IMG/VR virus record: IMGVR_UViG_3300020048_000019
Span: 1 to 64,000 of that record
DNA from: a virus
Taxonomy: Duplodnaviria; Heunggongvirae; Uroviricota; Caudoviricetes
Reading direction: 5' to 3' (one strand)
DNA: 64,000 nucleotides
Shown here one piece after another: positions 15,480 to 41,650 of the stretch (its first letter is position 1; each line of letters begins with the position of its first letter). Made by a program: the position numbers and the translations under genes. The notes under the pieces are model-generated. The model was given only the letters and a program-made list of their open reading frames with translations. It was not told the DNA's origin and did no database searches.

Positions 15480-15735
15480 ATATGTAGACGCCGAAGTCAC
15501 ACTTCCGCCTCCAGTAAAGAAGCAGGTGTGGGACGGTGAGAAGTTTGTACCGATGACACTGTATAAAACAAAAGGCTGGCCAGGCATGGAAGCAGAGAAC
15601 TGGTTGCTTGAAACTTTTGGGCACCCAGGCACATACCGTGCTGGAAGATTTTGGGATTACAGTAGAGCCGGAGACTTCACGCTGATGGATGAAAAAGTTT
15701 ATACATGGTATCAAATGAAATGGAGTAAAAGATGA
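15460..15735 (+). CDS. hypothetical protein (91 aa)
   Basis: ORF only. Confidence 0.35.
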   Translation: MWEQKIEYVDAEVTLPPPVKKQVWDGEKFVPMTLYKTKGWPGMEAENWLLETFGHPGTYRAGRFWDYSRAGDFTLMDEKVYTWYQMKWSKR

Positions 15736-16706
15736 CAAAAATTTTAGTAACAGGTGGTCTAGGCCTGATTGGGCACAACGTTGTGCAGCGTTTGCAACAG
15801 CGAGGTGACGATGTTTCAATTATAGACAATCAGACAACATACGGTATTATACCGCGTGAAGAAATTGATTATCTAGTAGGCGAGAGGCTCAAGAAGATTG
15901 AAAAGTGTCATATCTATCATGATTACATTGAAAATGCAAGTCGTGTAGACGCTATTATGGATACAGAAAAACCTGAGATAATAGTACACATGGCCAGTTT
16001 TCCTAGACAAAAAGTTGTTAATGCGAATCCAGCAAACGGTTCGCGTGTGATGATGGAAGGCTTGATCAACATGTTGGAGAGTGCCAAAAAGCACAAGGTC
16101 GAGCGCTTTGTTTACATCAGTTCTAGCATGGTGTACGGAGACTTTGAAGATCAAGTGCTGGAAGATGACCCTTGTGCGCCACAAGGACAGTACGGCATCA
16201 TGAAACTGGCAGGAGAATGGTTGGTCAAAGATTATGCAAGAAAGACAGGCATGGAATATGTTATTATCCGTCCGTCGGCAGTATACGGGCCTTTGGACGT
16301 GGAAGATAGAGTTGTTGCAAAGTTTATGCTGGCTGCAATGCGTGGGCATACCCTTAAGGTCAACGGAGCGTCAGAAACCCTGGACTTTACCTATGTGGAT
16401 GACGCTGCAGATGGCATCGTGGCGGCTGCAACTCGAATCATGGCGAGAAATAATACTTACAACATCACTAAAAGTCACTCAGTTACACTACAAGAGGCCG
16501 CGGAAATGATCGTGGAGATTGTGGGATCGGGTTCCATCGAAGTACGCGACAAGGATGCAGACTTTCCTAGCCGCGGTGCTCTCAACATTGATCGTTCTAG
16601 AACTATTCTGGGATTTGATCCCAGGGTGGATGTGCATGAAGGATTTCAGAAGTACTATGAATGGTTGAGTACATCTACATACTGGCAAGCTCAAATAAAA
16701 CAATGA
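15732..16706 (+). CDS. NAD-dependent sugar-nucleotide epimerase/dehydratase (extended SDR)
   Basis: TGGLGLIGHNVV Rossmann motif and YGIMK (YxxxK) catalytic motif. ATGA overlap with the upstream gene. Confidence 0.7.
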   Translation: MTKILVTGGLGLIGHNVVQRLQQRGDDVSIIDNQTTYGIIPREEIDYLVGERLKKIEKCHIYHDYIENASRVDAIMDTEKPEIIVHMASFPRQKVVNANPANGSRVMMEGLINMLESAKKHKVERFVYISSSMVYGDFEDQVLEDDPCAPQGQYGIMKLAGEWLVKDYARKTGMEYVIIRPSAVYGPLDVEDRVVAKFMLAAMRGHTLKVNGASETLDFTYVDDAADGIVAAATRIMARNNTYNITKSHSVTLQEAAEMIVEIVGSGSIEVRDKDADFPSRGALNIDRSRTILGFDPRVDVHEGFQKYYEWLSTSTYWQAQIKQ

Positions 16707-17773
16707 AAATCCCATTTACAGGCATTCAGAGGCAGTATGTAAATCTTCGAGAGGAGATCCTGGATATCACTGATCAAGTGCTTGTTACAGGCCATCTCAT
16801 GAACGGGCCAAGGACCATGGCGTTTGAAGACTGGCTGGCCAACAAGAATCATGTGAAGTACGCTGTGACTTGTCACTCGGGCACACAGGCGCTGGAACTG
16901 ATTGCTAGCTTTCATCGGCAATACGGGTTCGGCGGTGCCACTCCTACTGTGCTGATTCCAGCCATGACCTATATTGCCACAGCCAATGCTTGGGTCAAAG
17001 CGGGCTGGAACATTCACATTGTGGACACCGACGGCTACGGTCTAATAGATCCCAAGAAGGTACCTCGTGACCTAGTGTTCCACGCTGTGTGTACTGTGGG
17101 ATTGTACGGTGCTGCATATAATCGCTGGTTCCCAAACGAAGGCAACTATGTCATGATCGAGGATGGTGCCCAACACTGGCTCTCCAATGATTGTAGACGC
17201 CACGGTGCTGCATGTGCTATTAGCTTTGATCCCACCAAGAACTTTGCTAACTATGGCAATGGCGGCGCTGTGGTTACAAACGATCGACAACTGTTAGACT
17301 TTGCACGAGACTGGCAAAGCAATGGTCGAGGCGGTGGTGATGCCTATTATGTGACCAACAGTCGCATGAGTGAAGTAGACTGTGCGCAAATGATGATCAA
17401 GGCACGCTATCTCAACGAATGGCAGGCTCGTCGTGAAACGATTGCTAGATACTGGATGGATCAATTAACCGACTTACCAATACGTTGCTTGATCGACAGC
17501 ACCAACGTAGACAAACACTGCTTTCACAAGTTTGTAATTGACATTGACAACAGAGATTCTGTTATGAATAAACTAGCTGATGCTGACATTTCTACCAAGA
17601 TTCACTACACGCGACCCCTGCACGAAGAACCTAGATATGTAAACACCCCAGGACCAGACATGATGAGTGCAGCAAGTAGTCTAGCTCGTCGTGGACTCAG
17701 CTTGCCCATCTACCCTGAGCTAACTGATACTGAAGTTGAGTTTATTGCTGATCAGGTACTAAAGAACGTTTGA
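16703..17773 (+). CDS. DegT/DnrJ/EryC1/StrS-family PLP-dependent sugar aminotransferase
   Basis: Start re-assigned to MKIPFTG (ATGA overlap with the epimerase stop). Block ISFDPTKNFANYGNGGAVVTND matches the DegT PLP-lysine region. Confidence 0.6.
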   Translation: MKIPFTGIQRQYVNLREEILDITDQVLVTGHLMNGPRTMAFEDWLANKNHVKYAVTCHSGTQALELIASFHRQYGFGGATPTVLIPAMTYIATANAWVKAGWNIHIVDTDGYGLIDPKKVPRDLVFHAVCTVGLYGAAYNRWFPNEGNYVMIEDGAQHWLSNDCRRHGAACAISFDPTKNFANYGNGGAVVTNDRQLLDFARDWQSNGRGGGDAYYVTNSRMSEVDCAQMMIKARYLNEWQARRETIARYWMDQLTDLPIRCLIDSTNVDKHCFHKFVIDIDNRDSVMNKLADADISTKIHYTRPLHEEPRYVNTPGPDMMSAASSLARRGLSLPIYPELTDTEVEFIADQVLKNV

Positions 17774-20330
17774 CAAACGCATAACTTGCCAGCCAATCCC
17801 ACTCGTAGCTTTTACGAAGCTCAGTGGGATTACCTTTGACTGACTCGTAGTATTCCACGGCATCTTCTGCACCCAAGTGGCTGTACTCAAATGCATCTTC
17901 ATGCACAAGCCACTGTTTGAGTCTGTACTCGTTTTCAACGTTGGGCAAGCTAGCACGAAGTTTAAGAACCTCACGAAACGCTGTGCGCCAGCACATCCAC
18001 GGAGTTTCTTGATAGTATGCTCTGCCACTTAGGACGGGCACAACTTCATGAGCGCTGTCTAACGTAAAGTCAAGTCCATGTCCAGAGTTAGCCAACACCA
18101 AGTCTCGGTTGTAGGCAATCATGGCCTGATGTCCGTATACCAAGCCATTCACTGTGTTCTCAGCATGAAAGATATAATGCTTGGGTTGCTGCATACGATC
18201 AGGTTGCCAGTCCCAGTTAAAGTTTGGCTCTACACGTAGTTTGGCAAATACTGCAAAGAACCAAGGTGTAGCACTCTTGCGAGCCGCAGCATGATATGCA
18301 GCCACACGACCTTTTACGTTGTCCACACGATGAATCAAGTTGTTGCGATTGTATCTGCTGTCTAGTAGTGCAGAATAGTTAACGTCAGCGTTGGCTTCTC
18401 CGTTTGAAATAAACACAATATCCAAGTTTTTATCGCCGTGGCGCCGCTGTTGCTTTTTGTCAATGTAAGGATAATCGTACAGTTGTGTCTTGATATACGG
18501 CAGCGCCACACGCGGTACAATCACTGCACTTGCACCTGCACTAAGTGGCGTTATTGTTTTGGTTTCTGCACGCCACAAGTTCACAGCTGGCACCGTGACA
18601 GGCATGCCATTGGCAGTAAACAATGCTAGCGGGCCAGACCATTCTGCAGTTTTAACTGCTTCAACATTGCTGTCTCCCATATGCTCAATCACAGGCAACG
18701 GTCTGCGTGGCACAATATAATCAACAAAGTTTACATCGTACCATTCCAGTAGCGCCTTCTTTTCTGCACGCTCTGCAAAGGTAGGAACATGCATGTAAAA
18801 TGTGTCGCCAAACTTTTGATCGTTTGATGGGAACACATGCAGCATTGTGGCTTGCCATTGTTCAGGATGCCAGCTAAAGTCGAAGCCTGCGTAATCACAA
18901 ATGCTACTACACACCCAGACCCACTCATGCTCAGGTCCAATGCTCTTGGCAAGACGTATTAGCGTGTCGCGGTAGTTGTCAAAGTAGCGTACTGTTTTGA
19001 CAACGTTGGGCATTTGTCTAGCATGCCCGTCCAAGTGATCAATTTCGTAAATTGCAACAGATTCCTTGTTGTTGGTAATACGTATTTGATCCACGTACTT
19101 GACTTCTGTTGCTCCGAGTATGCTGTAGACAGGACCGCCTGTGCGTTGGTGCTGTGTGCCAAATTGATAGATGTAAGCTTTCTCGGCAGCATCAGGGTGC
19201 CAGGTCCAGTCAAATGTGTCAGTGTCTACACCTGCTGGCACTGTCCAACAAGAGTCCGTGGATGTTTTGATTGCACGGGGATGACTCACATATTTGACTT
19301 CTGTTGCTCCGGGCACAGTGTAAACAGGGCCACCTGTTTGTTGCCACTGTGTGCCAAATTGATAAATGTAGGCAACTTCTGTAGTGTCTGGATGCCAGGT
19401 CCAGTCAAATGTGTCAGTATCTATACCGTCGGGCACTGACCAAAAAGAATCTACAGACGTTTTAGTTGCTTGTGGGAAATTTATGTACTTGACTTCTGTC
19501 GCGCCGGGCACGGTGTAAACCGGTCCACCTGTTCGTTGGTGCTGCGTACCAAATTGATAGATCAATGGAGGATTACCCGGATCCGGTACCCATGAATAAT
19601 CTACCTCGGTACCATCAATGTCAGGTGGCACAGTCCATGATGCCCGATCAGGCAACAGTTGTGCATGCGGCCGGTCCATGTACTTGGCTTCCGTTGCACC
19701 CGGCACATGATATTCTAGTGTGGGCATTTTTTCCGCACTCCAATGCTGGTTACCAAACACATAAATGAAGGGCGGATCTCCCGGGTCAGGAACCCACGAA
19801 TAGTCCCACTCACAGTCAATCAAGGTATGCCAACGGTTGCAATGGCGTTCGGGTAACCGTGCTCGCGGCTCGGTCATGTACTTGCGTTCTGTTGCGCCAG
19901 TTACTGTATATTCTACAGTGGGCATGATCTCAGCCGAGTGCCACTGATTGCCAAACACATAGATAAAAGGCTGATCCATGGGATGCGGATGCCATGTGTA
20001 ATCAAAATCTGCTGTGGTTAAAAGATCAAATTCGGCAGGCAAGGACTTGTTGGGGACGATATTTTTATGAAAGTGATATTTGATTTCGCCGACAGCTGGT
20101 ACTAGATATGTACCTGAGTAATCGTGATGTTGGCTAGGCCAGGTATGTGTAAATTCACTCTGCCATGGCACAGGCTCATAATCAAAATCAAACGTATCAT
20201 AGTCTGATAAGTATGATATCCACCAAAAATACCTAGTACGACACAGTTGTTGTGCGTGCTCAATACTTTGTGCTTCACATTCGTGCGCAAACAGATTGGG
20301 TTTACTCCCTGAATAAAATACGTCAAACAT
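17742..20330 (-). CDS. 862-aa protein with about seven tandem ~43-aa repeats (FDxxWxPDxxxxPxIYxFGxQHxxxGGPVYTVPGATExKY)
   Basis: ATG confirmed. Protein-level repeats with matching ~130-bp DNA periodicity at about 19130-20010. C-terminal half is non-repetitive. Confidence 0.5.
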   Translation of the reverse strand: MFDVFYSGSKPNLFAHECEAQSIEHAQQLCRTRYFWWISYLSDYDTFDFDYEPVPWQSEFTHTWPSQHHDYSGTYLVPAVGEIKYHFHKNIVPNKSLPAEFDLLTTADFDYTWHPHPMDQPFIYVFGNQWHSAEIMPTVEYTVTGATERKYMTEPRARLPERHCNRWHTLIDCEWDYSWVPDPGDPPFIYVFGNQHWSAEKMPTLEYHVPGATEAKYMDRPHAQLLPDRASWTVPPDIDGTEVDYSWVPDPGNPPLIYQFGTQHQRTGGPVYTVPGATEVKYINFPQATKTSVDSFWSVPDGIDTDTFDWTWHPDTTEVAYIYQFGTQWQQTGGPVYTVPGATEVKYVSHPRAIKTSTDSCWTVPAGVDTDTFDWTWHPDAAEKAYIYQFGTQHQRTGGPVYSILGATEVKYVDQIRITNNKESVAIYEIDHLDGHARQMPNVVKTVRYFDNYRDTLIRLAKSIGPEHEWVWVCSSICDYAGFDFSWHPEQWQATMLHVFPSNDQKFGDTFYMHVPTFAERAEKKALLEWYDVNFVDYIVPRRPLPVIEHMGDSNVEAVKTAEWSGPLALFTANGMPVTVPAVNLWRAETKTITPLSAGASAVIVPRVALPYIKTQLYDYPYIDKKQQRRHGDKNLDIVFISNGEANADVNYSALLDSRYNRNNLIHRVDNVKGRVAAYHAAARKSATPWFFAVFAKLRVEPNFNWDWQPDRMQQPKHYIFHAENTVNGLVYGHQAMIAYNRDLVLANSGHGLDFTLDSAHEVVPVLSGRAYYQETPWMCWRTAFREVLKLRASLPNVENEYRLKQWLVHEDAFEYSHLGAEDAVEYYESVKGNPTELRKSYEWDWLASYAFVKRSLVPDQQ
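19130..20010 (-). repeat. in-frame coding tandem repeats (about 7 units) within the 862-aa gene
   Basis: Recurrent DNA blocks, for example ccaggtccagtcaaatgtgtcagt at about 19199 and 19392. Confidence 0.5.
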
Positions 20331-21456
20331 GATTAGAATAGATGAGCTTTATAATAATACGTTTTGGCCTTGGCTTTACCAAAATCGTCCCGGGATCAGA
20401 GCATATTTCTGTGATCCATTTGGTAGGAGTGATCCAGATAGTGTTCACAACCACGGCAGAGATGACATCCCCGAGTACAATTATATATTCTTTTTTGATC
20501 AAGAGCCTATTCATTTGAGCATACACACCAAGACATTTGAACACGTACTAGGTGCAAATCTTGACATAACGCACAAAAAAATTAAAAAACAATTCTATCG
20601 AAAAAAGAAAGCAGGGTACTTGATTACCAGTGAAAAAGACAGCGAGAACGTGGATCATGTATGCCAACAATTTGGTTGGAAATCTTTATATTACTTCTTT
20701 CATGGCTGGGCTGCACTAGATTGGTATCGCGGTTACGACAAAACATTCTTGATCACACCGGTCAACGAGCGCACAATTACTCATACATTTTTAGCACCAA
20801 ATCGTATTGTTGCCGGCGAGCGACAGCACCGATTGGAAATGTTGTATCATGTGTTCAAACGCAACATGGCACACAACCACATCAGTTGCCCTGCTGTATG
20901 CCCTGCTGAGAACATCAGCATAGAGGACGCGACCACTCCATTGTTATCAAAGTACCCAGATATTCAAAAAGTGTTTGCGGCTCAAACTTTGCCAATCAAC
21001 TTTGAGAACGAGTCTAATCATCCTATGCACAGTTGTTGGCTCAGTTTGTTTGGCCAAGCTAGCGAAAGTCTGTTATACTTGGTAACTGAAACTGTGGCAA
21101 CAGGCCGCAGACACCACCTTACTGAAAAAACTTTCAAGCCTATTGCCCTAGGCATGCCATTTGTTATTGTTGGTACTCGTGGCAGTTTAGAATACCTGCG
21201 CAGTTACGGTTTTCGCACCTTTGAAGGCATCTGGGACGAAAGCTATGATCAAGCAGACGACAGCAATCGAATTCAGCGTATTGCTAGCTTATTACAAAGC
21301 TTAGACGAGCTTCCGCAATCAGGCAAACAAGAATTGTTTGAAGCTTGTCAAGAAGTTATAGAACACAATTGGAATCACTTTTACGGTGGTGGCTTTGAAG
21401 CTGTGCTATGGCAAGAATTAAATGAAATGTTAAATGGAATTGAACCTAATAGCTGA
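20329..21456 (+). CDS. fucosyltransferase-like (GT10-like) glycosyltransferase, paralog 2 of 5
   Basis: YYFFHGWAALDWYRG and LVTETVATGRRHHLTEKTFKPIALGMPFVIVGTRGSLEYLRSYGFRTFEGIWDESYD. Confidence 0.5.
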   Translation: MIRIDELYNNTFWPWLYQNRPGIRAYFCDPFGRSDPDSVHNHGRDDIPEYNYIFFFDQEPIHLSIHTKTFEHVLGANLDITHKKIKKQFYRKKKAGYLITSEKDSENVDHVCQQFGWKSLYYFFHGWAALDWYRGYDKTFLITPVNERTITHTFLAPNRIVAGERQHRLEMLYHVFKRNMAHNHISCPAVCPAENISIEDATTPLLSKYPDIQKVFAAQTLPINFENESNHPMHSCWLSLFGQASESLLYLVTETVATGRRHHLTEKTFKPIALGMPFVIVGTRGSLEYLRSYGFRTFEGIWDESYDQADDSNRIQRIASLLQSLDELPQSGKQELFEACQEVIEHNWNHFYGGGFEAVLWQELNEMLNGIEPNS

Positions 21457-22618
21457 CCAAGTTATCAAGGGTCGCATATATCCTGCCCTAGCACGGCATT
21501 CCGCAAGGCCTTATACACAGGCATGGCGCGAGTTCGGGCTACATTTTCCTTACACTGTACCTTTAAGATTGCAAGAGTACTGCAACCACCACAATGTAAA
21601 AATTAATATTCATCACATGCACAGTGCTTTGCCCAAAAACACTTATTATCCTGTAGGTCTTGGATTTTTTAATTTTGGGATTGACTATTTCACATTGTTA
21701 CCTGCTGAAGTGTTTTATGCTGTGTTAAAGGGCAAAATTCGTGTGTTATTTTACTATCACGAAGGTGACAATCCATTTAGTATCAAGCAGCGTCTGGACA
21801 CTCTTGCAGCACAGTTAAGGCTTCCGCAAGATTGCTATGTGTTTGTCAGCGCCAATTCTGCTGCCAGCAGTATTCCCGGCTTTGTGCATTTTAACGATTT
21901 TGAATTATGGTACTGGCAACGCAATGAGGCTGTACAGCCTTGCAACATACATGATCAGCTACGCGAGCGTGAGTTCACTGTGTTGAATAGACTGCACAAA
22001 TCATGGCGTGCTACTGCAATGGCAGATCTGCATCGTCAAGGCATCTTGAACAACAGTTACTGGAGTTATTGCGAATCTGGAGACTTAGTAGATGCTGAGA
22101 ATCCCATAGAAATAGACAGTATTGATACTCTACGAACCTCCACTACAGATTTTCTAGCACAGGCTCCTTACATAAGTGACAAGCTGAGTCAGGATGAACG
22201 CAACAATCATAGTATTCAAGAATCCAAATATTATGTAAATGCCTACTGCAATATTGTAATGGAAACACATTTTGATGCTGACGGGTGTGATGGAACTTTT
22301 CTTACGGAAAAAACATTCAAACCTATCAAGCATGGACAATTGTTTTTTATTGCAGGGCCAGCTGGTAGTTTGCAGCAACTGCGTGATCTAGGTTATAGAA
22401 CATTTGATTCAGTCCTGGACAACACTTATGATCGCATTGCAGACAACACCCAACGATGGCTCAGACTGCGTGACGCTATTCAACAAGCACAACATAGATT
22501 AGCAGACAGATTTGAGGCAGCTAGATCAGATATCGAGCACAATCAGCAGTTATTTGTGGCTCCCAAGACCCAACGTTTAAATACTCTTGTTAGGAAAATA
22601 AATGAGCAATATTGTTAA
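21434..22618 (+). CDS. fucosyltransferase-like (GT10-like) glycosyltransferase, paralog 3 of 5
   Basis: C-terminal METHFDADGCDGTFLTEKTFKPIKHGQLFFIAGPAGSLQQLRDLGYRTFDSVLDNTYD. Confidence 0.5.
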   Translation: MELNLIADQVIKGRIYPALARHSARPYTQAWREFGLHFPYTVPLRLQEYCNHHNVKINIHHMHSALPKNTYYPVGLGFFNFGIDYFTLLPAEVFYAVLKGKIRVLFYYHEGDNPFSIKQRLDTLAAQLRLPQDCYVFVSANSAASSIPGFVHFNDFELWYWQRNEAVQPCNIHDQLREREFTVLNRLHKSWRATAMADLHRQGILNNSYWSYCESGDLVDAENPIEIDSIDTLRTSTTDFLAQAPYISDKLSQDERNNHSIQESKYYVNAYCNIVMETHFDADGCDGTFLTEKTFKPIKHGQLFFIAGPAGSLQQLRDLGYRTFDSVLDNTYDRIADNTQRWLRLRDAIQQAQHRLADRFEAARSDIEHNQQLFVAPKTQRLNTLVRKINEQYC

Positions 22619-23642
22619 TTCGTACACTAGTTGGCAACCACTAGAAGAAGTTATTGTGGGCAGAGCCTACAGTCCAGACTATTTTGATTTTATCGACAAC
22701 CCGCAGGTGCGCAATCAGCTACAACAAATCCTGTCCGAGACTGAGGAAGATCTAGACCAATTGAGCCGCACAATTGAAAAGTACGGTGCCACTGTACGTA
22801 GACCAAACTTGCCCGACAAAGAAGGTTTTCTTTGGCTCCACGGTAAAGATAAAAAAAGAAAAAAAGAAGCACCGTTGCCTCCCTTGACGCCACGCGACTG
22901 GCAAATTACACTGGGTGACAAATTGTTGCGTGTACTGAACATGGAAGGGCTGGACGAAATCTGTGCCAGCTATGGGGATCAAGTTATCAATCCACATTAC
23001 GGGCGTTGGGATCCTAAGTGTGTTCTAAACGGTGCGTCAGCTAGTTGTATTGTGCGGGTAGGGCGCGATGTATTCTTCGACAATAGCGATTTCCTCAAAC
23101 CTGAGCAAACACGCTGGATTGTGGACAATGTACTAGGTCCCGAATATCGCATTCATGAAGCCATTACAGACGGGCACGGCGACGCTGTATTTGCTATTCT
23201 CAAGCCAGGTGTTATTTTAAGCAGTAAGCATGACGTAAACTTGGACCTGGCCAAAGACTTTCCTGGATGGGATGTTTGCAAGATCTGGGACAGCAGCATC
23301 TGGGCAGCAATGGAAGTGGGCAAGTTCAAGTATGAGCAAAGTCCGGGGGCATGGTATGTGCAAGGTCAAACACCCACCCCTGAGTTTGCACAGTTTGTGG
23401 ACACCTACCTAAACAAGTGGACTGGCTTTGTGGCAGAAACTGTGTTTGACGTCAACTGTCTTGTGCTGGACGAAGAGAACGTCATCTTTAGTGCATACAA
23501 CAAGCAGGTGTTTGACTACTGCCACAAGCATCGTATCAATCCTATTATTAGTGAACTGCGACATAGCTACTTTTGGGACGGTGGTATCAGTTGCTGTACA
23601 CAGGATATTCGTCGTCGTGGTGGCATGGAGACTTACCTGTGA
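22602..23642 (+). CDS. amidinotransferase (AGAT/StrB1/CyrA/SxtG-like, guanidino-group-modifying enzyme superfamily)
   Basis: C-terminus WDGGISCCTQDIRRRGGMETYL parallels the AGAT catalytic-Cys tail GGGFHCWTCDVRRRG..YL. Internal GHGDAVFAILKPGVIL block. Confidence 0.55.
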   Translation: MSNIVNSYTSWQPLEEVIVGRAYSPDYFDFIDNPQVRNQLQQILSETEEDLDQLSRTIEKYGATVRRPNLPDKEGFLWLHGKDKKRKKEAPLPPLTPRDWQITLGDKLLRVLNMEGLDEICASYGDQVINPHYGRWDPKCVLNGASASCIVRVGRDVFFDNSDFLKPEQTRWIVDNVLGPEYRIHEAITDGHGDAVFAILKPGVILSSKHDVNLDLAKDFPGWDVCKIWDSSIWAAMEVGKFKYEQSPGAWYVQGQTPTPEFAQFVDTYLNKWTGFVAETVFDVNCLVLDEENVIFSAYNKQVFDYCHKHRINPIISELRHSYFWDGGISCCTQDIRRRGGMETYL

Positions 23643-26149: not shown

Positions 26150-26356
26150 TTATGTCTTTCTAAATTTAGGTGTAGAGTCTGCACTGGCTTCATATTCCAG
26201 TCCTTGTAATACAGCAGCTAGATCTGCAAGAGATTTTTGATCCAGTCTGTGTCTAAACATTGTGGCAACTCCTGCGCCGTACACAAGATAAAACAGATCC
26301 TTGGGATCCTGCTCTAGTTGAATTTTAAATATTTCTTGCATTTTTTCCAGCGTCAT
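26150..26356 (-). CDS. hypothetical small protein (68 aa)
   Basis: ATGA overlap with the upstream gene. Confidence 0.35.
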   Translation of the reverse strand: MTLEKMQEIFKIQLEQDPKDLFYLVYGAGVATMFRHRLDQKSLADLAAVLQGLEYEASADSTPKFRKT

Positions 26357-27396
26357 TTCAATTCCTTTATTTGACGTGCAGGATAATCTGCATCAGTCCA
26401 GTTGTATGTATATGTAGCTTCGACGTTGCCAATTTGAATTTTATACACATCTAGATGCTGTGCAATCTGCGCCCAGATTGTGTTGTAATCCACAGTACCA
26501 AAGCTTTTGATCAAGTCTACTTGTGCTACCTTGGGATGCCCTATTGTCAAGCCTGGGTCTTCGGGATCAAACCCATTAACAATCAACCATTCACGAAACT
26601 CAGCTAGATTCTTTTGCTGCCATTCATATGCACCGGGATCACGTGCCCATTCTATATCAAAGTCGCCTGCTGCTAGAGTCTGTGATCTTAGAGTGCTGCT
26701 AGTCAGTTCGCCTAGCCTCGAGTCTCGCCCTTCGTCGGTAAACACTTCCCAATGAGCCTTGCCCACTGCTTTGTTCACACCCACATACACTCCGCCCAGC
26801 TGGCGATTTAGTGTATCAACCCCAAACAAGTCAAAGTCTTCAGGTTCTAGTTCAAAGCGCGGTGCATTCAACCAGCACATCAGCTGACTGGGGCGTCTCC
26901 ATTCGGGTGCTTGCACCGCTTTTCGCATGCTGAGCACCAGACTTTCCAGCTCGTGACACAAGAGATTTAGTTGACGAATATGCCAACGTGTATCTGCGTT
27001 GGCTTTGTTATAGTACAAACTCATGGCACCCGACACGCCTTGAAGGTCTTCAAACCAACGATGCAGCTGATTCATTCGCTCATGGTCAATGTCTAGGTCC
27101 GGCTGTATTACTGACTCCACTGTGTAAGCATCACAGTCAATACGATAACCCAGGTCAGCTCCATTAACAGCACCAATGCTGGTATTGATAGCCTGACAAA
27201 TGTATTCAGCGGTACGGTGACTTTCGGGCCAGCCCAACCAGCAGTAATTCTTTTCCAAATGTTTTTCATTTTTGATCAGGTCCTTTAGGGCAGCAAGCCA
27301 TTTTGAGCTGAGACTGTTGTTGTATACGTCAATATACACTGGCAACAAGCTGCCAGTTCTTGAACTGCGTAGTGTGATAATGATTTGCTTATTCAA
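26353..27396 (-). CDS. hypothetical protein (347 aa), probably TTG-initiated
   Basis: The only available start is TTG at 27394-27396. It is preceded by GGTGGA at 6-nt spacing and overlaps the upstream stop. Confidence 0.45.
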   Translation of the reverse strand: MNKQIIITLRSSRTGSLLPVYIDVYNNSLSSKWLAALKDLIKNEKHLEKNYCWLGWPESHRTAEYICQAINTSIGAVNGADLGYRIDCDAYTVESVIQPDLDIDHERMNQLHRWFEDLQGVSGAMSLYYNKANADTRWHIRQLNLLCHELESLVLSMRKAVQAPEWRRPSQLMCWLNAPRFELEPEDFDLFGVDTLNRQLGGVYVGVNKAVGKAHWEVFTDEGRDSRLGELTSSTLRSQTLAAGDFDIEWARDPGAYEWQQKNLAEFREWLIVNGFDPEDPGLTIGHPKVAQVDLIKSFGTVDYNTIWAQIAQHLDVYKIQIGNVEATYTYNWTDADYPARQIKELK

Positions 27397-28681
27397 TTTG
27401 ATTCCACCATTTTAGTACTGCAGGGCGCTGACTTAATATAGTGCTCATGTCAGTGGGGGCTGTGCGTATGCTTTCTAATTGTAACACACGAGCCTTGCCG
27501 CGAGCAAGCTCTTGTTGGTAAGTGTCAGGCCATTGTTCATCAAACGTGGGTCTTGACTTTAGCTGAGTTAGCACTGATCGCATACTAGACTCTGTGCAAC
27601 GGCCAATCAGTTCGTCCAACCAGGGTCCTAATAGGTGTCTAGGCAGCGCAAGTGGACTCATTGCAATACTGGGATCAAAGCTGAATATTACCTTGCTCAG
27701 TAACTCTACATCGTATTCGCGTGCTAGTGCTTGTATAGCATCTACTTCAGTCATGCCCGGCAGGGTCAGCGTAAAGTCTAAACGCATTTGTCTACGGTTT
27801 TTCTGGTGGGCAAGTCCGGCGGCAAAGTTGGTTCTGAATTGGTTGTAGTCAAGTCCGGTTCGGATGTACTCGCCAGTAGCTCCTGTGCCGTCGATGCTAG
27901 CGCATATCTGCCAGTCACGTATAGAATCCAAAATATCGCTATATAGATCACACCCACGAAAATTAACACGGCTAAGATTGGTATTGTACCTTGCATATAC
28001 TCGTCCTCCATCTCCTAATTCAACAATGCGCTGCATATAGCGCCAGTGCTGTTCATACATGAGCGGTTCTCCACCCACCCAGTACACTTCTTCTACCCTA
28101 TGCTGTTCTACAGCCTGAGCAAATTCCTGTTCAACTTGATTCTCTTGAAAGGCGTGAATCTGATGTCGTATATCGTTTCGCATCCAACTGTTTTTTGGAT
28201 CTGCCCAATTAACCATGTTGTTCTGCTTTTGTTCAGTTTCCCACGAGCTGGATAACATGTCCCCGCAAGTTCTACACTTGAAGTTACAAAGGTTGCTAAA
28301 CCTATAATCCCAGCTAACGGGCTGCATTGTGGTTGCTCCACTGCTATCAGTTGTGGCATAAACTTCCTGTAATTTGTGCGCAAACAAGTGTCCAAAGTAA
28401 TCCCTGTACACACTGGTATTTAACAGCTTTGAATTGCATACGTCACACTCGGGTAACGTTTCTCCTGCCATCATCCTGCGGCGCACTGACTTCATGTGGT
28501 CTGAGTTCCAGTGCGCTTCCAGAGTGACCGGAATATACTTGCCTGTGCCTGCTGCTGTGTCTATATACTGTTCAAAGTTTTGTGCGGGTTCGCGACTGGC
28601 ACAGCACAAGCGCCGTTCAGTTTGCGGACTCAGATACGTGTGAGTCCACGGTGCCAGACATAATGACTCAGGTTTATCCAT
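27389..28681 (-). CDS. radical SAM enzyme, paralog A1 (N-terminal Cys-rich module plus CNFKCRTC)
   Basis: CxxxCxxC in FSNLCNFKCRTCG. N-terminal CLAPW..CCASRE..RRRMMAGETLPECDVC. Start re-assigned to ATG 28681 (the track start is a TTG). Confidence 0.6.
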   Translation of the reverse strand: MDKPESLCLAPWTHTYLSPQTERRLCCASREPAQNFEQYIDTAAGTGKYIPVTLEAHWNSDHMKSVRRRMMAGETLPECDVCNSKLLNTSVYRDYFGHLFAHKLQEVYATTDSSGATTMQPVSWDYRFSNLCNFKCRTCGDMLSSSWETEQKQNNMVNWADPKNSWMRNDIRHQIHAFQENQVEQEFAQAVEQHRVEEVYWVGGEPLMYEQHWRYMQRIVELGDGGRVYARYNTNLSRVNFRGCDLYSDILDSIRDWQICASIDGTGATGEYIRTGLDYNQFRTNFAAGLAHQKNRRQMRLDFTLTLPGMTEVDAIQALAREYDVELLSKVIFSFDPSIAMSPLALPRHLLGPWLDELIGRCTESSMRSVLTQLKSRPTFDEQWPDTYQQELARGKARVLQLESIRTAPTDMSTILSQRPAVLKWWNQIE

Positions 28682-29687
28682 TAATGAACTCAAATAAAGG
28701 TTGCTGTATTGTGGTGTAGGCTAGTTCATTGGTTATACTGCGATCAAAGAACCTGTTTTGATTGTGGCGCAGCTTTTCCAATACTCTAGGTTGATCAACT
28801 CTAGCACAATCAAAACAGGTTACTTGTTGCACAACACAATCGATACGCTGCTGCCAGTCTGGAATGTTGTCATAGCTTTCGTCAAACAGCTCGGGAAATG
28901 TTTCAAATCCCTGTGAGCGCAGATAAGCAAGATTTCCTTGTGTTGATGCCATGAGTATAGGATGCTGCGCTGCTATGGGTTTGTAGCTCTTTTCGGTCAG
29001 GAACAAATGATCGTGTTGAGTAAGACTGTAGCCAGTTGTGGCTGCATAATCCACATAGGTTTCTACTGCCAGTGTAAATGCAGTGTTGTGCATCCAATCA
29101 GGATTGATATATCGTTGCTGCAATACAGGGTCGGGCCAATCATCGGGTAAATTTATTCCACGTGCTTGATAACTGTGAATACTGTCCCATAGCTGATTTT
29201 TCAGCTGATCAAATACATAGTCACGTTCAGTTCGTTGTTTGCCCAGGGTCAGAAAGAATTTCTTTTTAGGGGTTCTAGGTTGCCAAGCAATGTCGAGCAC
29301 GCCAGTTGTGGTCAATTGTGTCTGATCCAGGATCCAGTACCAGTAAGGCGTTGCAATAATTTTCACCCCTGGTAACAGATTAGGCTCGTGCCCTGATATA
29401 ATAAAACATCCTTGCCCCGGATGCTGTAAGAAATCTAATAGAATAGAATGCATTTTGAAATGAATGTAGTGTTCATTCTTGGCATCAAATATCACACGAT
29501 AGCCCTGTTGCAGGTGCAGCGGAATCATGTCATGATTCGGGCCGTACATGTCATAATAAAACACTGTACTCAGCGGGTATGTTGCTGCAGGATCAAAGAA
29601 TTCAAACGGCATGCCCTTGGGCACAATCATTCTTATCTTTTCCTGAGGTGCTCCCGTGGGATCGTAAACAAATACCAGCTTAGGCAT
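28674..29687 (-). CDS. fucosyltransferase-like (GT10-like) glycosyltransferase, paralog 4 of 5
   Basis: HDHLFLTEKSYKPIAAQHPILMASTQGNLAYLRSQGFETFPELFDESYD. Start re-assigned to ATG 29687 (the track start is a TTG). Confidence 0.5.
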   Translation of the reverse strand: MPKLVFVYDPTGAPQEKIRMIVPKGMPFEFFDPAATYPLSTVFYYDMYGPNHDMIPLHLQQGYRVIFDAKNEHYIHFKMHSILLDFLQHPGQGCFIISGHEPNLLPGVKIIATPYWYWILDQTQLTTTGVLDIAWQPRTPKKKFFLTLGKQRTERDYVFDQLKNQLWDSIHSYQARGINLPDDWPDPVLQQRYINPDWMHNTAFTLAVETYVDYAATTGYSLTQHDHLFLTEKSYKPIAAQHPILMASTQGNLAYLRSQGFETFPELFDESYDNIPDWQQRIDCVVQQVTCFDCARVDQPRVLEKLRHNQNRFFDRSITNELAYTTIQQPLFEFING

Positions 29688-30894
29688 TCTTTTGATACTC
29701 AAGTAACACGGCCATTTCAGGAGCAACTTGTGCGAAGTCTTGATTTCTTTTGCGATCTAGATCACGTATCTTCATCCTAGTCATCATGCCGTCGGTGCTG
29801 GCGCCACCATTCATGAAGTCTGAAATGCGCCCAAACTCCTTGGCATGTTCTTCAGGCACACCACAGGTTTTCAAGAACACGCTTAGTTCAGCTTTTGCTG
29901 TGTCTGGCAAGGTGGCAATACTAAAATACCAAGCATCGTGCATGATGTTCCAGTACACATAGTCAAAGCCCTGTTGCACAATCCATTGTGCCAATTGATC
30001 TAGATAGCGCACGTTGAACACGTTTACTGTACTGCAACACTGTAGCCGAATGTTGGCATGCTCAGATCGCAACTGGCGGAATCGTCCTAGGTTTTGTTCT
30101 ACTTCGGACCATATAGCGTTTGAGCGTTGGTATTCAAAGCGTGGACCTAGATCATCAATGCTGAAAGCAATTTCCACTGTTTTAAAATGGCTCCAGATCT
30201 CTGGACCACGATCGGGCCACTGCGTGCCATTTGTGTTGTAGTGTATTTCTACCTGATGCGCAATACCACGATCAATCATGCCTTGTAACATGTCAAAGTG
30301 CTGCTCAATCATGAACGGCTCACCGCCAGTAAACTCAATATAACGAATGTTGTTTAAATGATTGTCAATTTCTTGCCAGAATTGAGCATTTTCCTTGGGC
30401 CAAGCCCCGGCCCGTAGCATAGTATATGCATGTGACTTTTTCTGTTCTTCACGGGGCAAGAATGATATCTCTTCCGAAGCATATTGACTGCTACTCCAGC
30501 TGCCGCATATACGGCATTTTAAGTTGCAGATGTTGCCCAGTTTCAGATCCAGGAACATCAGGGGCTTGGCATCCACAGTCCACTCGGTGTCTGACAGAGT
30601 GTGCTTGAGGCGGTCCAGAGTATGCATGCGTTTGCTGGTACGCCCTGAACGTTCTTCATTCCAGCATTTGCGGCAGGTCTGCGGCTTTTCGCCAGCTAGA
30701 AACTGTTCACGTAGCTTGGTCATGCTTGAACTGTTTTGTATGCCAGCAAAGTCAGCACTCAGCAAACTGAACTTGTTACCAGCATCATCTACCAGTTCGT
30801 CGTCAGCTAGGCAACAAGGGCGCACTGTCCCCACGGGACTGGCTTCTAGGCTGATCCAAGGCAGTATGCAAAAGGTCTTGTGGGGGATGTTCAT
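29680..30894 (-). CDS. radical SAM enzyme, paralog A2
   Basis: LKLGNICNLKCRICGS. N-terminal FCILPW..PCCLADDE..FLAGEKPQTCRKCWNEE. Start ATG at 30894 forms an ATGA overlap with the upstream stop. Confidence 0.6.
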   Translation of the reverse strand: MNIPHKTFCILPWISLEASPVGTVRPCCLADDELVDDAGNKFSLLSADFAGIQNSSSMTKLREQFLAGEKPQTCRKCWNEERSGRTSKRMHTLDRLKHTLSDTEWTVDAKPLMFLDLKLGNICNLKCRICGSWSSSQYASEEISFLPREEQKKSHAYTMLRAGAWPKENAQFWQEIDNHLNNIRYIEFTGGEPFMIEQHFDMLQGMIDRGIAHQVEIHYNTNGTQWPDRGPEIWSHFKTVEIAFSIDDLGPRFEYQRSNAIWSEVEQNLGRFRQLRSEHANIRLQCCSTVNVFNVRYLDQLAQWIVQQGFDYVYWNIMHDAWYFSIATLPDTAKAELSVFLKTCGVPEEHAKEFGRISDFMNGGASTDGMMTRMKIRDLDRKRNQDFAQVAPEMAVLLEYQKNA

Positions 30895-32288
30895 GTCATG
30901 ATGTCCAAATAAGAAAAAAGGCTGCGCCAATTGGTGTTGCGTCTGCGATCCATTTCGTCTAGGTACACACGCAATTGCTCAATGTCATGATAATTATGAC
31001 TGGTTTGTTGCTGTAGTAGACTTTGCAGGCCCTGCATGCGCGGAATGGCCTCTTGTTGTTCCGCTGTGCGCAGTGGCATTGCTGCAAATATGCGTTCAAA
31101 GTCTTGTTGCCAGAAATCCCATGCATAGGTCTTGGGATGCTGAAACATGTGCAGGCCTGTGTAGAACTGAAAGTAATGGCCAATATGTTTGTGCTGGCTG
31201 TACTGATCTATTTTGCGTATGAGATCTGGCATGGTGCGCACCGTCATGGCTGTTACAGTTTGGTTAGCATTCAATCGCAGCCACGAGCCTTGCTCACTGG
31301 CCCAGGCAAAACGCTGTTCAAACTGATCAAGATTCAATCCCGAGCGCACAAATTCTTGTTCAGGGCCCCAGCAGTCTATACTGGCAGTGAGATCAAACAC
31401 TGCAATATTACCAGCAGCTTGTAGGTCACGTATGCGAGGAATGTATCTATTCCAGGCTGAGTCAGGCACATTGAGGTTGCTGAATATGCAGAACTGTAGA
31501 TTGGGACTGGGTCGGCGCTCAATGATATCCAGCACGCGAGTCATTAGTTCGTGCTGCAAAAAGGTTTCGCCACCCAGCAAATGCAAGCGCACTAGGCTTT
31601 GCACATTGCGATCCAGCCATTCCAGCCAACGTTCAAAGTATTCTTTTGCTGCTGCTGTGGGTTTGTGTATTACGGGAATGGTCACGTTACCTGAATCAAA
31701 GTCCCCATACTTGATATTTTCTGCTTCAATTTTACTACTAAGGTTGCCGTTACAGTACATGCAGCTTAGATTGCAGGTATTCTGTGCAAAGATCTCTACT
31801 ATGCGCGGAGTCACGTGTGTAGCAGTAGGATCGGTCAGCAGCTCAGGCGGTGTTAGCCCCCGTATGTCTAGATTGTGCTGGCGGTCACTCCAGCCACCTG
31901 CACGCTCAATATCGCCGCAGTATTCACAACCGCCACGTGGCCATTCTCCTGCCAGCATGAGTTCACGATCAGCAATCTTTTTGGGCAGGTTATGAAAGTT
32001 CTCCATTTGATCTAGTTCAAACGGCACAGGGTTTACTCTGTGACAACTGGCACTACTAAGCTGATTGAGATATATAGTACTCCAGGTCCATTTGGATTGA
32101 CACGCTGTGGCTGTGTTGATTGGAAACCTTTCACCTTGTGCCAACTGCTGCTGTGTAAATTCTGCTATTTCTTGTCGTATGTGCGGCAATGCTGCTTGCA
32201 CTCCTGCAATATAAGCCAAGTAGCTGGGCCAGTCTGGACCAGCAAACACAGCATAGTCATCAGCAGTGACATAATGAGCTAGATTCAT
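30891..32288 (-). CDS. radical SAM enzyme, paralog B' (B-type N-module with extra N-terminal extension)
   Basis: AQNTCNLSCMYCNG. CQSKWTWSTIYL..SCHRVNP..LMLAGEWPRGGCEYCGDIE. An internal ATG at 32288 gives an ATGA overlap. The track start at 32324 is also an ATG. Confidence 0.55.
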   Translation of the reverse strand: MNLAHYVTADDYAVFAGPDWPSYLAYIAGVQAALPHIRQEIAEFTQQQLAQGERFPINTATACQSKWTWSTIYLNQLSSASCHRVNPVPFELDQMENFHNLPKKIADRELMLAGEWPRGGCEYCGDIERAGGWSDRQHNLDIRGLTPPELLTDPTATHVTPRIVEIFAQNTCNLSCMYCNGNLSSKIEAENIKYGDFDSGNVTIPVIHKPTAAAKEYFERWLEWLDRNVQSLVRLHLLGGETFLQHELMTRVLDIIERRPSPNLQFCIFSNLNVPDSAWNRYIPRIRDLQAAGNIAVFDLTASIDCWGPEQEFVRSGLNLDQFEQRFAWASEQGSWLRLNANQTVTAMTVRTMPDLIRKIDQYSQHKHIGHYFQFYTGLHMFQHPKTYAWDFWQQDFERIFAAMPLRTAEQQEAIPRMQGLQSLLQQQTSHNYHDIEQLRVYLDEMDRRRNTNWRSLFSYLDIMT

Positions 32289-39939: not shown

Positions 39940-40408
39940 AAGTTGTAGGATGTACAAAATTAAAATACTGCCCCTGATCTAGGCAACTGTGTCTTTTTAT
40001 TTCAGTGTAATCAGGCAAGCTAGTAGCAACGATATTCAGCAAGTCTTGATCATAGTCATCAGTTAGATTGGGCCATGTTTGTTGAGTAGTCACAGTGTAT
40101 TTGTTGATAGCAACATAGACCCAGGCAGGCTGATATTTAACTGAGTTATGCTGTAAGGTTTTTGTGAATTGTTCCAGTACTGTTACAGGATTAGGCAGCA
40201 AGTAAGCCAGCATAAACTTGCTGTCAAAACATGTGCTGCGCACCTTACAATTGGGCAATCGATCAGCAAAATACCCCTGGTCAGGATCACCCTTTAAAGC
40301 CAATTGCAGAACCTGTTGTTCAATACAAAAGTCAATTAGTTCTTGGTCCTGAGCGATTGTACCTTGGTTGTTGTAGTACAGTGATAATTGCCATTGTCGA
40401 GCATTCAT
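39917..40408 (-). CDS. hypothetical protein (163 aa)
   Basis: ATG at 40406-40408 overlaps the upstream TAA by 1 nt (TAATG). The track start is a TTG. Confidence 0.4.
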   Translation of the reverse strand: MNARQWQLSLYYNNQGTIAQDQELIDFCIEQQVLQLALKGDPDQGYFADRLPNCKVRSTCFDSKFMLAYLLPNPVTVLEQFTKTLQHNSVKYQPAWVYVAINKYTVTTQQTWPNLTDDYDQDLLNIVATSLPDYTEIKRHSCLDQGQYFNFVHPTTYAYFKRG

Positions 40409-41334
40409 TACCAACCTTCTAGTTTGCGAATAACATCAATTTCTCTAATCATGATACCTTGGTTGGCCCAGTTGCTGAGATAGTGTTGTTTGAAGAAAGC
40501 GCTTTGCTCGCCTTCAAACATGGCCACGGGCAAGCCCAGTTGAGAACCTAGGTCCAGTCCCACTTGATTGGCCAGAATACGTGGATCGCTATCTTGTACG
40601 CTTAGCCACAACTGTTCTAGTGCATCAAAGCTTTGCACTTCACGATAGTCCCAGCCAGTGAGCATGGTCATGTATGTGCCTTGGCGTGCGCCTGCTATGG
40701 CCCAGTGCCCGTAAGGAGTGTCTGCACCAATGTTGTGCCAGATTGTGAGATGATCAAGATTGCGCTGATGTACTCGATTGGTAAATTCTTCTGCAGTTGG
40801 CCGAACCCCGCGGTCCAGGCACATTTTGACTCCTTCTCGAAAACCAGCTCGCCAGGCTTGCCTAGCATCTCCGTCGGGATAGGTAGTGCTGTAGCAATCG
40901 TGCATGGCCCAGTAACGGGGATCAAAGCAAAATTCAACGTCATTTTCAAGCGCACCATCACTTGCTTCGTGTGTTCGCATGTCAAGAACAAATTCACGAG
41001 TCCACGAACTTAAACCACCATTACCATACATCAATCCATTTATATTATTTCGTGCCCGCCAGCGGAACACAGCATGCTCATATTCCGGTGTAGGAAAATC
41101 CAGCGTTTGATTAAAAAAACCTGGGTCGGGGAGATTGTCTCCGTCAATGAGTATAAACCTATCGGTAGATGATAGTTGCGCGGCTGCTTTATGCGCCGCG
41201 TCAGAACCCTTGACACCATCAACCCGCTGGGCCCAAGGCACCATGTTTTTAATCTGTGCCCAATGCTGTTCTTTGTTTGGTTCATCATAACTCAAGTATA
41301 TGCAGTCTAGATCTGCTATGTCAATTTGCTTCAT
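40408..41334 (-). CDS. hypothetical protein, possible nucleotide-sugar transferase (ILIDGDNLPD, DxD-like)
   Basis: First ATG at 41334 (MKQIDIADLD...). The track start at 41370 is a TTG. Confidence 0.4.
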   Translation of the reverse strand: MKQIDIADLDCIYLSYDEPNKEQHWAQIKNMVPWAQRVDGVKGSDAAHKAAAQLSSTDRFILIDGDNLPDPGFFNQTLDFPTPEYEHAVFRWRARNNINGLMYGNGGLSSWTREFVLDMRTHEASDGALENDVEFCFDPRYWAMHDCYSTTYPDGDARQAWRAGFREGVKMCLDRGVRPTAEEFTNRVHQRNLDHLTIWHNIGADTPYGHWAIAGARQGTYMTMLTGWDYREVQSFDALEQLWLSVQDSDPRILANQVGLDLGSQLGLPVAMFEGEQSAFFKQHYLSNWANQGIMIREIDVIRKLEGW

Positions 41335-41650
41335 GTGTTTTTTTGCTCCAATATGTTCCGTTTTGTTCAACTACTATAGCAACGTCATGTTCATGGCACA
41401 TTGTGCCAGTGTTGTTGGGTACAATTTTTTGTGTAGTTTGCCAGGTCAACTCAACCATTCGGCCATCACGCACTCGCACACAACTGCTGCCGAGGTTGTA
41501 TGCTGCCTGGTCAATCTCAATATATGTACCTGGCAGATCCTCCATGCTGTAGAATAATGGAACGCCCGACTCATCGTGATACAGTCTGTAAAACACCGGC
41601 TGGGGCTCGGGCATGTTGGCTATTGCACCAAAGAATTCTTCAGGTGTCAT
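41321..41650 (-). CDS. hypothetical protein (109 aa)
   Basis: ATG at 41650 gives an ATGA overlap with the upstream stop. Confidence 0.3.
   Translation of the reverse strand: MTPEEFFGAIANMPEPQPVFYRLYHDESGVPLFYSMEDLPGTYIEIDQAAYNLGSSCVRVRDGRMVELTWQTTQKIVPNNTGTMCHEHDVAIVVEQNGTYWSKKTHEAN

Follow-up and report, generated by a model that had tools for sequence, protein, structure and literature searches.

The window analyzed here is a 64,000-nucleotide stretch of virus DNA (Caudoviricetes; positions 1 to 64,000 of the IMG/VR record IMGVR_UViG_3300020048_000019), and the element under study is the gene at positions 17742-20330 of its minus strand. An earlier reading made from the letters alone (hereafter the sequence-only reading) had placed an 862-aa open reading frame (ORF) here, and we find the same frame, on the minus strand and with an ATG start. 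Its product carries a cap and a tandem array of five clear repeat units (R1 to R5), followed by two domains (A2 and A3) that resemble the A fold of glycosyltransferases (GT-A). The modules, with the scores given to the units by a repeat hidden Markov model (HMM), are as follows.

17742..20330, minus strand: whole gene, 862-aa multi-module GT-A-like protein; ATG start, stop codon at 17742-17744 (ORF list)
20007..20330, minus strand: N-terminal cap module, aa 1-108; strand-helix-strand plus a degenerate unit (R0) with the motif FDFDYEPVPW at aa 47
19809..20006, minus strand: R1, aa 109-174, a-type; repeat HMM 104 bits, BLASTP against the other units E down to 2e-21
19605..19808, minus strand: R2, aa 175-242, a-type; repeat HMM 113 bits
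19410..19604, minus strand: R3, aa 243-307, b-type (QFGTQHQRTGGPVY); repeat HMM 82 bits, in the Tandem Repeats Finder (TRF) array
19215..19409, minus strand: R4, aa 308-372, b-type; repeat HMM 84 bits
19023..19214, minus strand: R5, aa 373-436, b-type, the conserved terminal unit; repeat HMM 72 bits
18426..19022, minus strand: middle domain A2, aa 437-635, degenerate GT-A-like; motif FDFSWHPE at aa 483, CSSICDY in the place of DxD
17745..18425, minus strand: C-terminal domain A3, aa 636-862, complete GT-A-like domain plus helical bundle; first strand DIVFISNGE, motif FNWDWQPD at aa 704
18240..18248, minus strand: F695-A696-K697, in the DxD columns of relatives (alignments)

The C-terminal half of the protein (aa 424-862) is modeled with a glycosyltransferase fold. 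Its AlphaFold2 (AF2) model is confident (predicted local distance difference test, pLDDT, 89.6; predicted template modeling score, pTM, 0.85), and all of its top Foldseek matches in the PDB are GT-A glycosyltransferases, with probabilities of 0.93 to 1.0; the matches include RmlT, WrtF, ArnC, GtrB, SunS/ThuS, ppGalNAcT and GlfT2. Two polymerases that each contain two GT-A domains, K4CP and CHSY3, align with this half over more than 500 columns, and on these matches we therefore read it as the tandem GT-A-like domains A2 and A3. The suggestion of the sequence-only reading that the C-terminal part has transferase-like features was sound, since the stretch IVFISNGE that it singled out forms the strand with which a GT-A-fold domain opens.

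An exhaustive search with an HMM whose profile combines A3 and stand-alone relatives recovered a superfamily of 1,652 representative clusters (50% identity), 776 of them at an E value of 1e-30 or lower. A3 itself matches the superfamily HMM over profile positions 3-226 (226 bits, E = 4e-69), and aa 636-855 are 28.7% identical (E = 1e-8) to RsoM2USA_348, a hypothetical protein of 233 aa whose match is confined to A3 and which is the sole relative from a cultured phage. RsoM2USA_348 has in turn 389 unnamed relatives of 221-399 aa. In the stand-alone relatives aligned with A3, a GT2-like signature is present, with DIIFISYNEPNAD on the first strand and then hhhhDxD; across this DxD region, PF00535 gave a weak, subthreshold match (19.9 bits) in one distant superfamily representative only. 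The conserved superfamily residues that A3 has in common are D-I-x-F-I-S, E, N-x-x-N-G-L-x-Y-G, D and W-R-x-A-F-R-E-x-x-K-L, among which A3 keeps E645, the N-x-x-N-G-L-x-Y-G segment, D754 and R786-E787-K790. A2 is 66-92% identical across homologs.

The repeat array lies N-terminal to these domains. A regular-expression scan places the motif [FWV]-D-[FWY]-x-W-x-P at aa 47, 109, 175, 243, 308, 373, 483 and 704, and the repeat sequences quoted in the sequence-only reading are indeed present at aa 109, 175, 243, 308 and 373. Several of its other statements about the repeats need correction. The period is 64-68 aa, the proposed ~43 residues being only the conserved core of each unit; TRF likewise reports an array at 19092-19559 with a period of 195 nt. 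The units are not near-identical, with 32-66% identity as protein and 45-68% as DNA, and on this DNA identity a recent duplication of near-identical units was rejected. About seven repeats, two of them degenerate, had been counted: we find five clear units and three degenerate copies (aa 47-107, 483 and 704), the last two of which fall within the C-terminal ~400 aa that had been called nonrepetitive. The enrichment in Trp, Pro and Gly holds, but Thr, the most abundant of the four enriched residues, had been left out (T 11.0%, P 9.5%, G 6.7% and W 4.6% in the array versus 4.2, 5.6, 4.0 and 3.5% outside it).

The similarity among the repeats is far beyond chance. Unit-versus-unit BLASTP comparisons yield E values of 1e-9 to 1e-29, searches with single units also find the sites at aa 47, 483 and 704, and the repeat HMM scores 72-113 bits for each of R1 to R5 and 17.5 bits for the degenerate copy at aa 47-107. 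The model of the N-terminal half (pLDDT 88.8, pTM 0.70) folds each unit into three strands and a short one, as in R1, and the cap into strands with one helix. Foldseek found no significant match for this half in the PDB (best E = 2), and in a viral structure library it matched only two uncharacterized members of the same family. That the repeat belongs to no recognized family, as first suspected, is borne out by the absence of matches in Pfam, PHROG, NCBIfam, PDB sequences and PDB Foldseek; the PKD and Big families, which the sequence-only reading had named as the kind of match that would overturn it, gave no sequence-model or fold match to the repeats, and neither did carbohydrate-binding modules (CBMs), cell-wall-binding modules or YG and CROP repeats.

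The gene is real and under purifying selection. Compared with an 83%-identical ortholog, the ratio of nonsynonymous to synonymous substitution rates (dN/dS) is 0.13 for the whole gene, 0.11 for the repeats, 0.08 for A2 and 0.105 for A3; the low value for the repeats indicates that the array is functional protein. The family comprises at least 3,974 homolog clusters at 90% identity, and the ORF is unbroken in every relative examined, contrary to what the sequence-only reading would have taken as grounds for doubt. Because the window is derived from a metagenome and repeats can mislead assemblers, one might ask whether the ORF is spurious, decaying or misassembled. We regard the chance of this as close to nil: an identical protein (P0001, on a 177-kb contig) turned up in data from JGI, Logan and ENA, intact homologs number in the thousands, selection is strong, the AF2 models are confident, and units that are 45-68% identical as DNA are too diverged for assembly collapse. 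P0007, the homolog most similar to our protein, was called at 844 aa from a start placed 18 codons too late (L003 3483-3536); the conserved MFDVFY start upstream gives it 862 aa, the same length as the protein studied here.

The whole protein has no match in Pfam, PHROG or NCBIfam, its separate domains have no Pfam match even at E = 5, and PDB sequence and profile searches returned no match. A megablast search of the gene against 50,697 phage records gave no match, and with tblastn RsoM2USA was the only match among phage records. A few homologs bear precomputed tags for PF09271 and PF02019, which are marked as faint and lack support; we treat these as spurious.

Origin of the units and change in their number

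Superfamily proteins are 225-2,164 aa long, and the complete domain is almost always C-terminal; a protein may have as many as 15 additional partial matches. These partial matches (304 in 149 representatives) are concentrated at profile positions 40-110, which correspond to a helix, the DxD strand, an F-N-F-D-Y turn and the following hairpin. By hhalign, the N-terminal cap matches the GT-A-like core profile with 95.8% probability and the N-terminal module of longer stand-alone relatives with 97.2%, and A2 gives a probability of 55.6%. The repeat profile matches the protein's own motif sites at aa 483 and 704 with 78% and 61%, respectively, and the partial-unit profile with 73.5%. An HMM built from the partial units of other subfamilies matches all eight modules in register (cap, 42.5 bits; A2, 30 bits; A3, 40 bits), with weaker periodic matches to R1 to R5. 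In R4 and R5, this match runs back into the preceding linker, where FWSVPDGIDTDT-FDWTW is aligned with MFWVVDDDVEVLDD-FDFDY, and the linker therefore looks like a relic of the DxD strand.

On these profile relationships, each repeat is most readily accounted for as an incomplete copy of the middle part of the protein's own GT-A-like domain, in which the relic DxD strand, the F-D-x-x-W-x-P-D turn and the hairpin would have been retained. The idea of the sequence-only reading that the repeat is an independent, added binding module gives way to this account. In other subfamilies (e.g., P0248, 1735 aa), arrays of up to 15 partial units have a period of ~100 aa that includes the helix and the DxD strand. 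The different lengths of the amplified fragment among subfamilies suggest independent amplifications.

The number of units changes among relatives. Across 127 homologs it ranges from 3 to 15 and correlates with protein length, which rises with a slope of 69 aa per unit (r = 0.97). The units fall into two subtypes: 99% of the homologs begin the array with an a-type unit and 98% end it with a b-type one, and this last unit averages 78% identity between homologs, whereas internal units average 45%. Internal blocks form stepwise series of the kinds a(n)b and aaab(n)aaaaaab (n = 1-5 in the latter). One ortholog, 85% identical, is shorter by exactly two units. In addition, two genes from different samples are identical across 3,390 nt and ~2 kb of flanks, save for a clean 198-nt deletion of one unit; the breakpoint lies in a 35-nt exact run common to adjacent units, and the shorter allele, with 10 units against 11, has a chimeric unit. 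This one-unit deletion reads as a signature of unequal recombination. Assembly error or collapse is an unlikely cause because the shared exact run is only 35 nt, which is shorter than the usual final assembly k-mers. Two samples yielded the longer allele in identical form. The proposal to look in related genomes for expansion or contraction at the DNA level thus had a positive outcome, in the 198-nt indel, the two-unit difference and the stepwise series alike.

The metal site and the sugar-tailoring island

The DxD motif has been lost from this family. None of 127 members has it (FAK in 122, FGK in 4 and PAK in 1), and Lys occupies the position of the second D in 127 of 127. Elsewhere in the superfamily the motif, as DAD or DGD, is kept by ~97-99% of the proteins, namely 154 of 158 complete domains of the wider superfamily and 119 of 120 stand-alone relatives. 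In the other modules, the place of DxD is taken by CSSICDY (A2) and ISYLSDYD (N-terminal module). One of the DxD-bearing relatives lies in the same window, at the end of a train of radical S-adenosylmethionine (SAM) genes described below.

40408..41370, minus strand: stand-alone superfamily paralog with DxD intact (FILIDGDNL; DGD); superfamily HMM 133 bits, E = 7e-41, and alignment

The TTG start listed for this paralog is probably too far upstream, a Met being present 12 codons in.

These observations bear on the principal rival explanation, that all of the GT-A-like modules are dead and that the protein is a pseudoenzyme scaffold, a platform or lectin-like adaptor that would hold sugar-nucleotides, glycan or partner enzymes while neighboring transferase-like genes and the DxD paralog perform the catalysis. 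The complete loss of DxD within the family, its absence from A2 and the N-terminal module as well, the DxD paralog in the window and the other transferase-like genes next door all agree with such a role. Against it, the remaining conserved residues (E645, N-x-x-N-G-L-x-Y-G, D754 and R786-E787-K790) are kept, the F-A-K replacement is itself invariant in its Lys, and the dN/dS of A3 is as low as that of the other domains. Moreover, GT-A enzymes that work without metal by means of basic residues exist, such as the GT14 enzyme C2GnT-L, along with bacterial GT6 enzymes with NxN. On balance, we hold the scaffold explanation to be appreciably less probable than the metal-independent, sugar-transferase-like role proposed below.

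The surroundings of the gene point to sugar chemistry. The window belongs to a jumbo T4-like myovirus: it carries RnlA, and its baseplate wedge protein is closest to those of Atu_ph07, SCTP-2, RsoM2USA and Rak2-like phages. The neighboring genes are as follows.

15732-16706, plus strand: epimerase/dehydratase of the short-chain dehydrogenase/reductase (SDR) type (Pfam); convergent neighbor
16661-17773, plus strand: DegT/StrS-type sugar aminotransferase (Pfam); convergent, overlaps the 3' end of the gene under study by 32 nt
20329-21456 and 21434-22618, plus strand: two paralogous unannotated ORFs of 375 and 394 aa, divergent from the gene under study; LTEKTFKP motif
22602-23642, plus strand: amidinotransferase homolog, 346 aa; AGAT (2jdx) E = 6e-15, StrB1 (1bwd) 1.7e-14, SxtG, HsvA; C-terminal GGISCCTQDIRRRG
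26353-38780, minus strand: train of ten overlapping ORFs, with seven N_Twi_rSAM paralogs (NF033640, 180-383 bits)

Further members are ThyX, on the SDR/DegT side, and, beyond the amidinotransferase, a DUF6071 protein and a NodU/TobZ-type carbamoyltransferase (all by Pfam). The two divergent ORFs, first called GT10-like in the sequence-only reading, have no Pfam, NCBIfam or PDB sequence match, and three ORFs of 347-370 aa interleaved in the radical SAM train match nothing. Taken together, the DegT, amidinotransferase, carbamoyltransferase, SDR and radical SAM genes make the island look like a phage-borne tailoring pathway of the aminoglycoside or aminocyclitol kind. Farther along, a 5,023-aa ORF (47170-62241, minus strand) adjoins baseplate and virion genes and is a possible giant fiber or structural protein, conceivably a target of glycosylation.

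The start codons of the gene and of its divergent 375-aa neighbor (20329..21456) share the palindrome CATG at 20328-20331, as the sequence-only reading had pointed out, and the same overlap recurs at L002 10001-10002 and L003 3483-3484, making three genomes in all. This arrangement leaves no intergenic space for a promoter, so that the promoters must lie inside the opposite gene or at a distance. A scan for promoters and terminators around the gene gave 8 sites against a shuffled expectation of 6.3 +/- 2.3, which is not above chance.

The order epimerase, DegT, the present gene and the divergent genes recurs in five independent contigs (including L002, L003 and L061), in which the protein measures 731, 862, 1129, 1195 and 1267 aa; ThyX and the carbamoyltransferase are visible on the longer syntenic contigs. 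In one lineage, a 209-aa GT25 gene (PF01755) stands between the gene and DegT (L061 6082-6711, L062 3783-4412, L063 4289-4918); transferase genes are gained and lost in the island.

This setting also bears on the suggestion of the sequence-only reading that the repeats bind carbohydrate or the cell wall, by which the array would act outside the cell and target an enzyme to the host envelope. Aromatic- and Pro-rich beta units in variable number, joined to a transferase-like domain, are what one would expect of such a protein. However, the units found here derive from an enzyme core and match no known binding-repeat family by sequence or fold, and the neighbors of the gene encode cytoplasmic sugar-nucleotide enzymes, as opposed to lysis or virion proteins. 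Inspection of the sequence by eye shows neither a signal peptide nor a membrane segment (no predictor was run). The cytoplasmic character of the island and the lack of a visible secretion signal argue against a wall-binding role, which we consider very unlikely.

We propose that the protein is a cytoplasmic, metal-independent, sugar-transferase-like component of this conserved sugar-tailoring island, with the array as an arm of variable length; we put the probability of this reading at roughly 50%, its activity and the role of the array being the inferred parts. The protein would consist of eight serial copies of one ancestral segment, the center of a GT-A-like domain, differing in completeness: the N-terminal cap, five minimal units, the degenerate A2 and the complete A3 with its helical bundle. 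In A3, F-A-K replaces the metal-binding DxD, with Lys697 possibly taking the place of the divalent cation, so that the protein may bind or transfer a sugar-nucleotide without metal, alongside the SDR enzyme, the DegT aminotransferase, the amidinotransferase, the carbamoyltransferase, other transferase-like genes and the radical SAM enzymes. The array would form a semirigid, beta-rich arm, the number of its units being altered by unequal recombination between neighbors. Since the array appears to descend from the part of the fold that faces the acceptor, it may bind or space a long or repetitive acceptor.

Several observations weigh against this proposal. The Foldseek E values for the C-terminal half are only ~1e-4, with template modeling (TM) scores of 0.2-0.3 for this two-domain query, and at the sequence level the protein has no membership in CAZy, Pfam or NCBIfam transferase families. 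None of its three GT-A-like modules has a canonical DxD, and the same genome retains a paralog that does, so that the protein could be catalytically dead. As regards the origin of the array, the direct match of the repeat to the core is weak (16% probability against the stand-alone profile), and the matches of R2 and R3 to the partial-unit HMM are individually marginal; the case for duplication accordingly draws on consistent register and transitivity and not on one strong score.

The radical SAM genes offer another possibility, that the array is a platform with multiple docking sites for the seven nearby paralogs or for their substrate. Superfamily genes usually neighbor those for N-terminal-twitch radical SAM (N_Twi_rSAM) enzymes, the primary partner on this view, and are sometimes fused to them. 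Stand-alone members adjoin N_Twi_rSAM genes in RsoM2USA, in a 206-kb phage-like contig and in a complete Bdellovibrionales chromosome. P0331 (681 aa) and P0366 (639 aa) are fusions of a GT-A-like domain (aa 1-226) with SPASM/twitch and radical SAM domains, natural fusions that provide Rosetta-stone evidence for a functional pair, and in our window the DxD paralog lies beside the seven N_Twi_rSAM paralogs. Yet it is that paralog that adjoins the train: the gene under study is ~6 kb away with other genes flanking it, and in the window and the syntenic contigs alike it stands between DegT and the divergent genes. We thus deem docking by the array itself unlikely, and, like extracellular wall binding, less likely than the scaffold explanation.

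A bolder form of our proposal would see a fragment of a glycosyltransferase core that was co-opted and amplified into a new beta-rich rod, its length tuned by frequent unequal recombination (3-15 units), which would serve as a ruler or multivalent arm determining how long a phage-made glycan or modified sugar polymer becomes or how it is patterned, or would dock radical SAM paralogs, with F-A-K as a new metal-independent GT-A mechanism. Taken as a whole, this version is doubtful. If it were true, the rod would provide rapidly variable surface or product chemistry for jumbo phages and Bdellovibrio-like predators.

Outside phages, homologs are concentrated in predatory bacteria (Bdellovibrionales, Bacteriovoracaceae and Oligoflexia; loci L005-L060), with four complete chromosomes represented, and further cellular homologs are found in Roseibium, Sulfitobacter, Mucilaginibacter and Dyadobacter. 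The Roseibium gene comes after a GT1-family transferase. At L012, three radical SAM genes and a gene for a metallo-beta-lactamase-fold protein accompany a homolog that stands amid housekeeping genes.

Comparison with known systems

The gene represents a very large family without name, curated model or literature, which is spread over environmental jumbo phages and predatory and other bacteria. It illustrates an unusual route of protein building, by which a piece of an enzyme core appears to have been copied into a confidently modeled array unlike any solved structure, and the copy number of this array is still changing in present-day populations. It also links a GT-A-like domain with lysine at the metal site, the N-terminal-twitch radical SAM family and a sugar- or aminocyclitol-style tailoring island of a phage. 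The product, once identified, could turn out to be a glycan or small molecule not previously seen from phages, and could show radical SAM enzymes in a new role there. In literature searches, the family and its amplified-fragment architecture, the F-A-K variant and the N-terminal-twitch radical SAM link were not described; the RsoM2USA paper makes no mention of ORF348 or ORF349, and the function of the NF033640 radical SAM family appears to be unpublished in the literature searched.

The closest known systems include RsoM2USA_348 and the stand-alone proteins encoded beside N_Twi_rSAM (NF033640) genes, which are homologous to aa 636-855 and some of which share the N-terminal module. Unlike the protein studied here, they are stand-alone, 221-399 aa long, keep DxD and have no repeat array; they are uncharacterized. 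With the GT2-type GT-A enzymes (RmlT, 8bz5; WrtF, 9omm; GtrB, 5eke; ArnC; SunS/ThuS, 7msp/7msk; GlfT2, 4fix), aa 424-862 have the fold in common. The first strand is likewise hhhhS-x-N-E, and the relatives of our protein carry DxD after the third strand. It differs from these enzymes in having no sequence-level family membership, F-A-K in place of DxD, a shortened nucleotide-binding half, a family-specific C-terminal helical bundle and core fragments amplified N-terminally.

Tandem GT-A-like domains are also found in the E. coli K4 chondroitin polymerase (K4CP, 2z86) and in human CHSY3-CHPF (9o4g/9q8z), with which Foldseek aligns 500-640 columns at TM-scores of ~0.22-0.28. These are characterized polymerases with DxD-type motifs in both domains, whereas both domains of our protein are without DxD.

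A catalytic-type domain joined to an aromatic-rich tandem beta array of varying unit number recalls the CROPs of clostridial toxins, the glucan-binding YG repeats and the choline-binding repeats, variable arrays of short aromatic beta-hairpin units (~20-50 aa) that are extracellular and belong to transferase or glucansucrase enzymes. Those repeats are unrelated in sequence to the units described here, do not derive from a catalytic domain and gave no sequence or fold match in our searches. By analogy, the array may also be compared with the coiled coil of WbdD, a molecular ruler of glycan polymerization: both would place a variable-length spacer beside transferase domains, one as a coiled coil and the other as a beta array. 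The fold class is a known one; what appears to be new, judging from the literature searched, is the family with its array of amplified core fragments, its F-A-K site and its tie to N-terminal-twitch radical SAM proteins.

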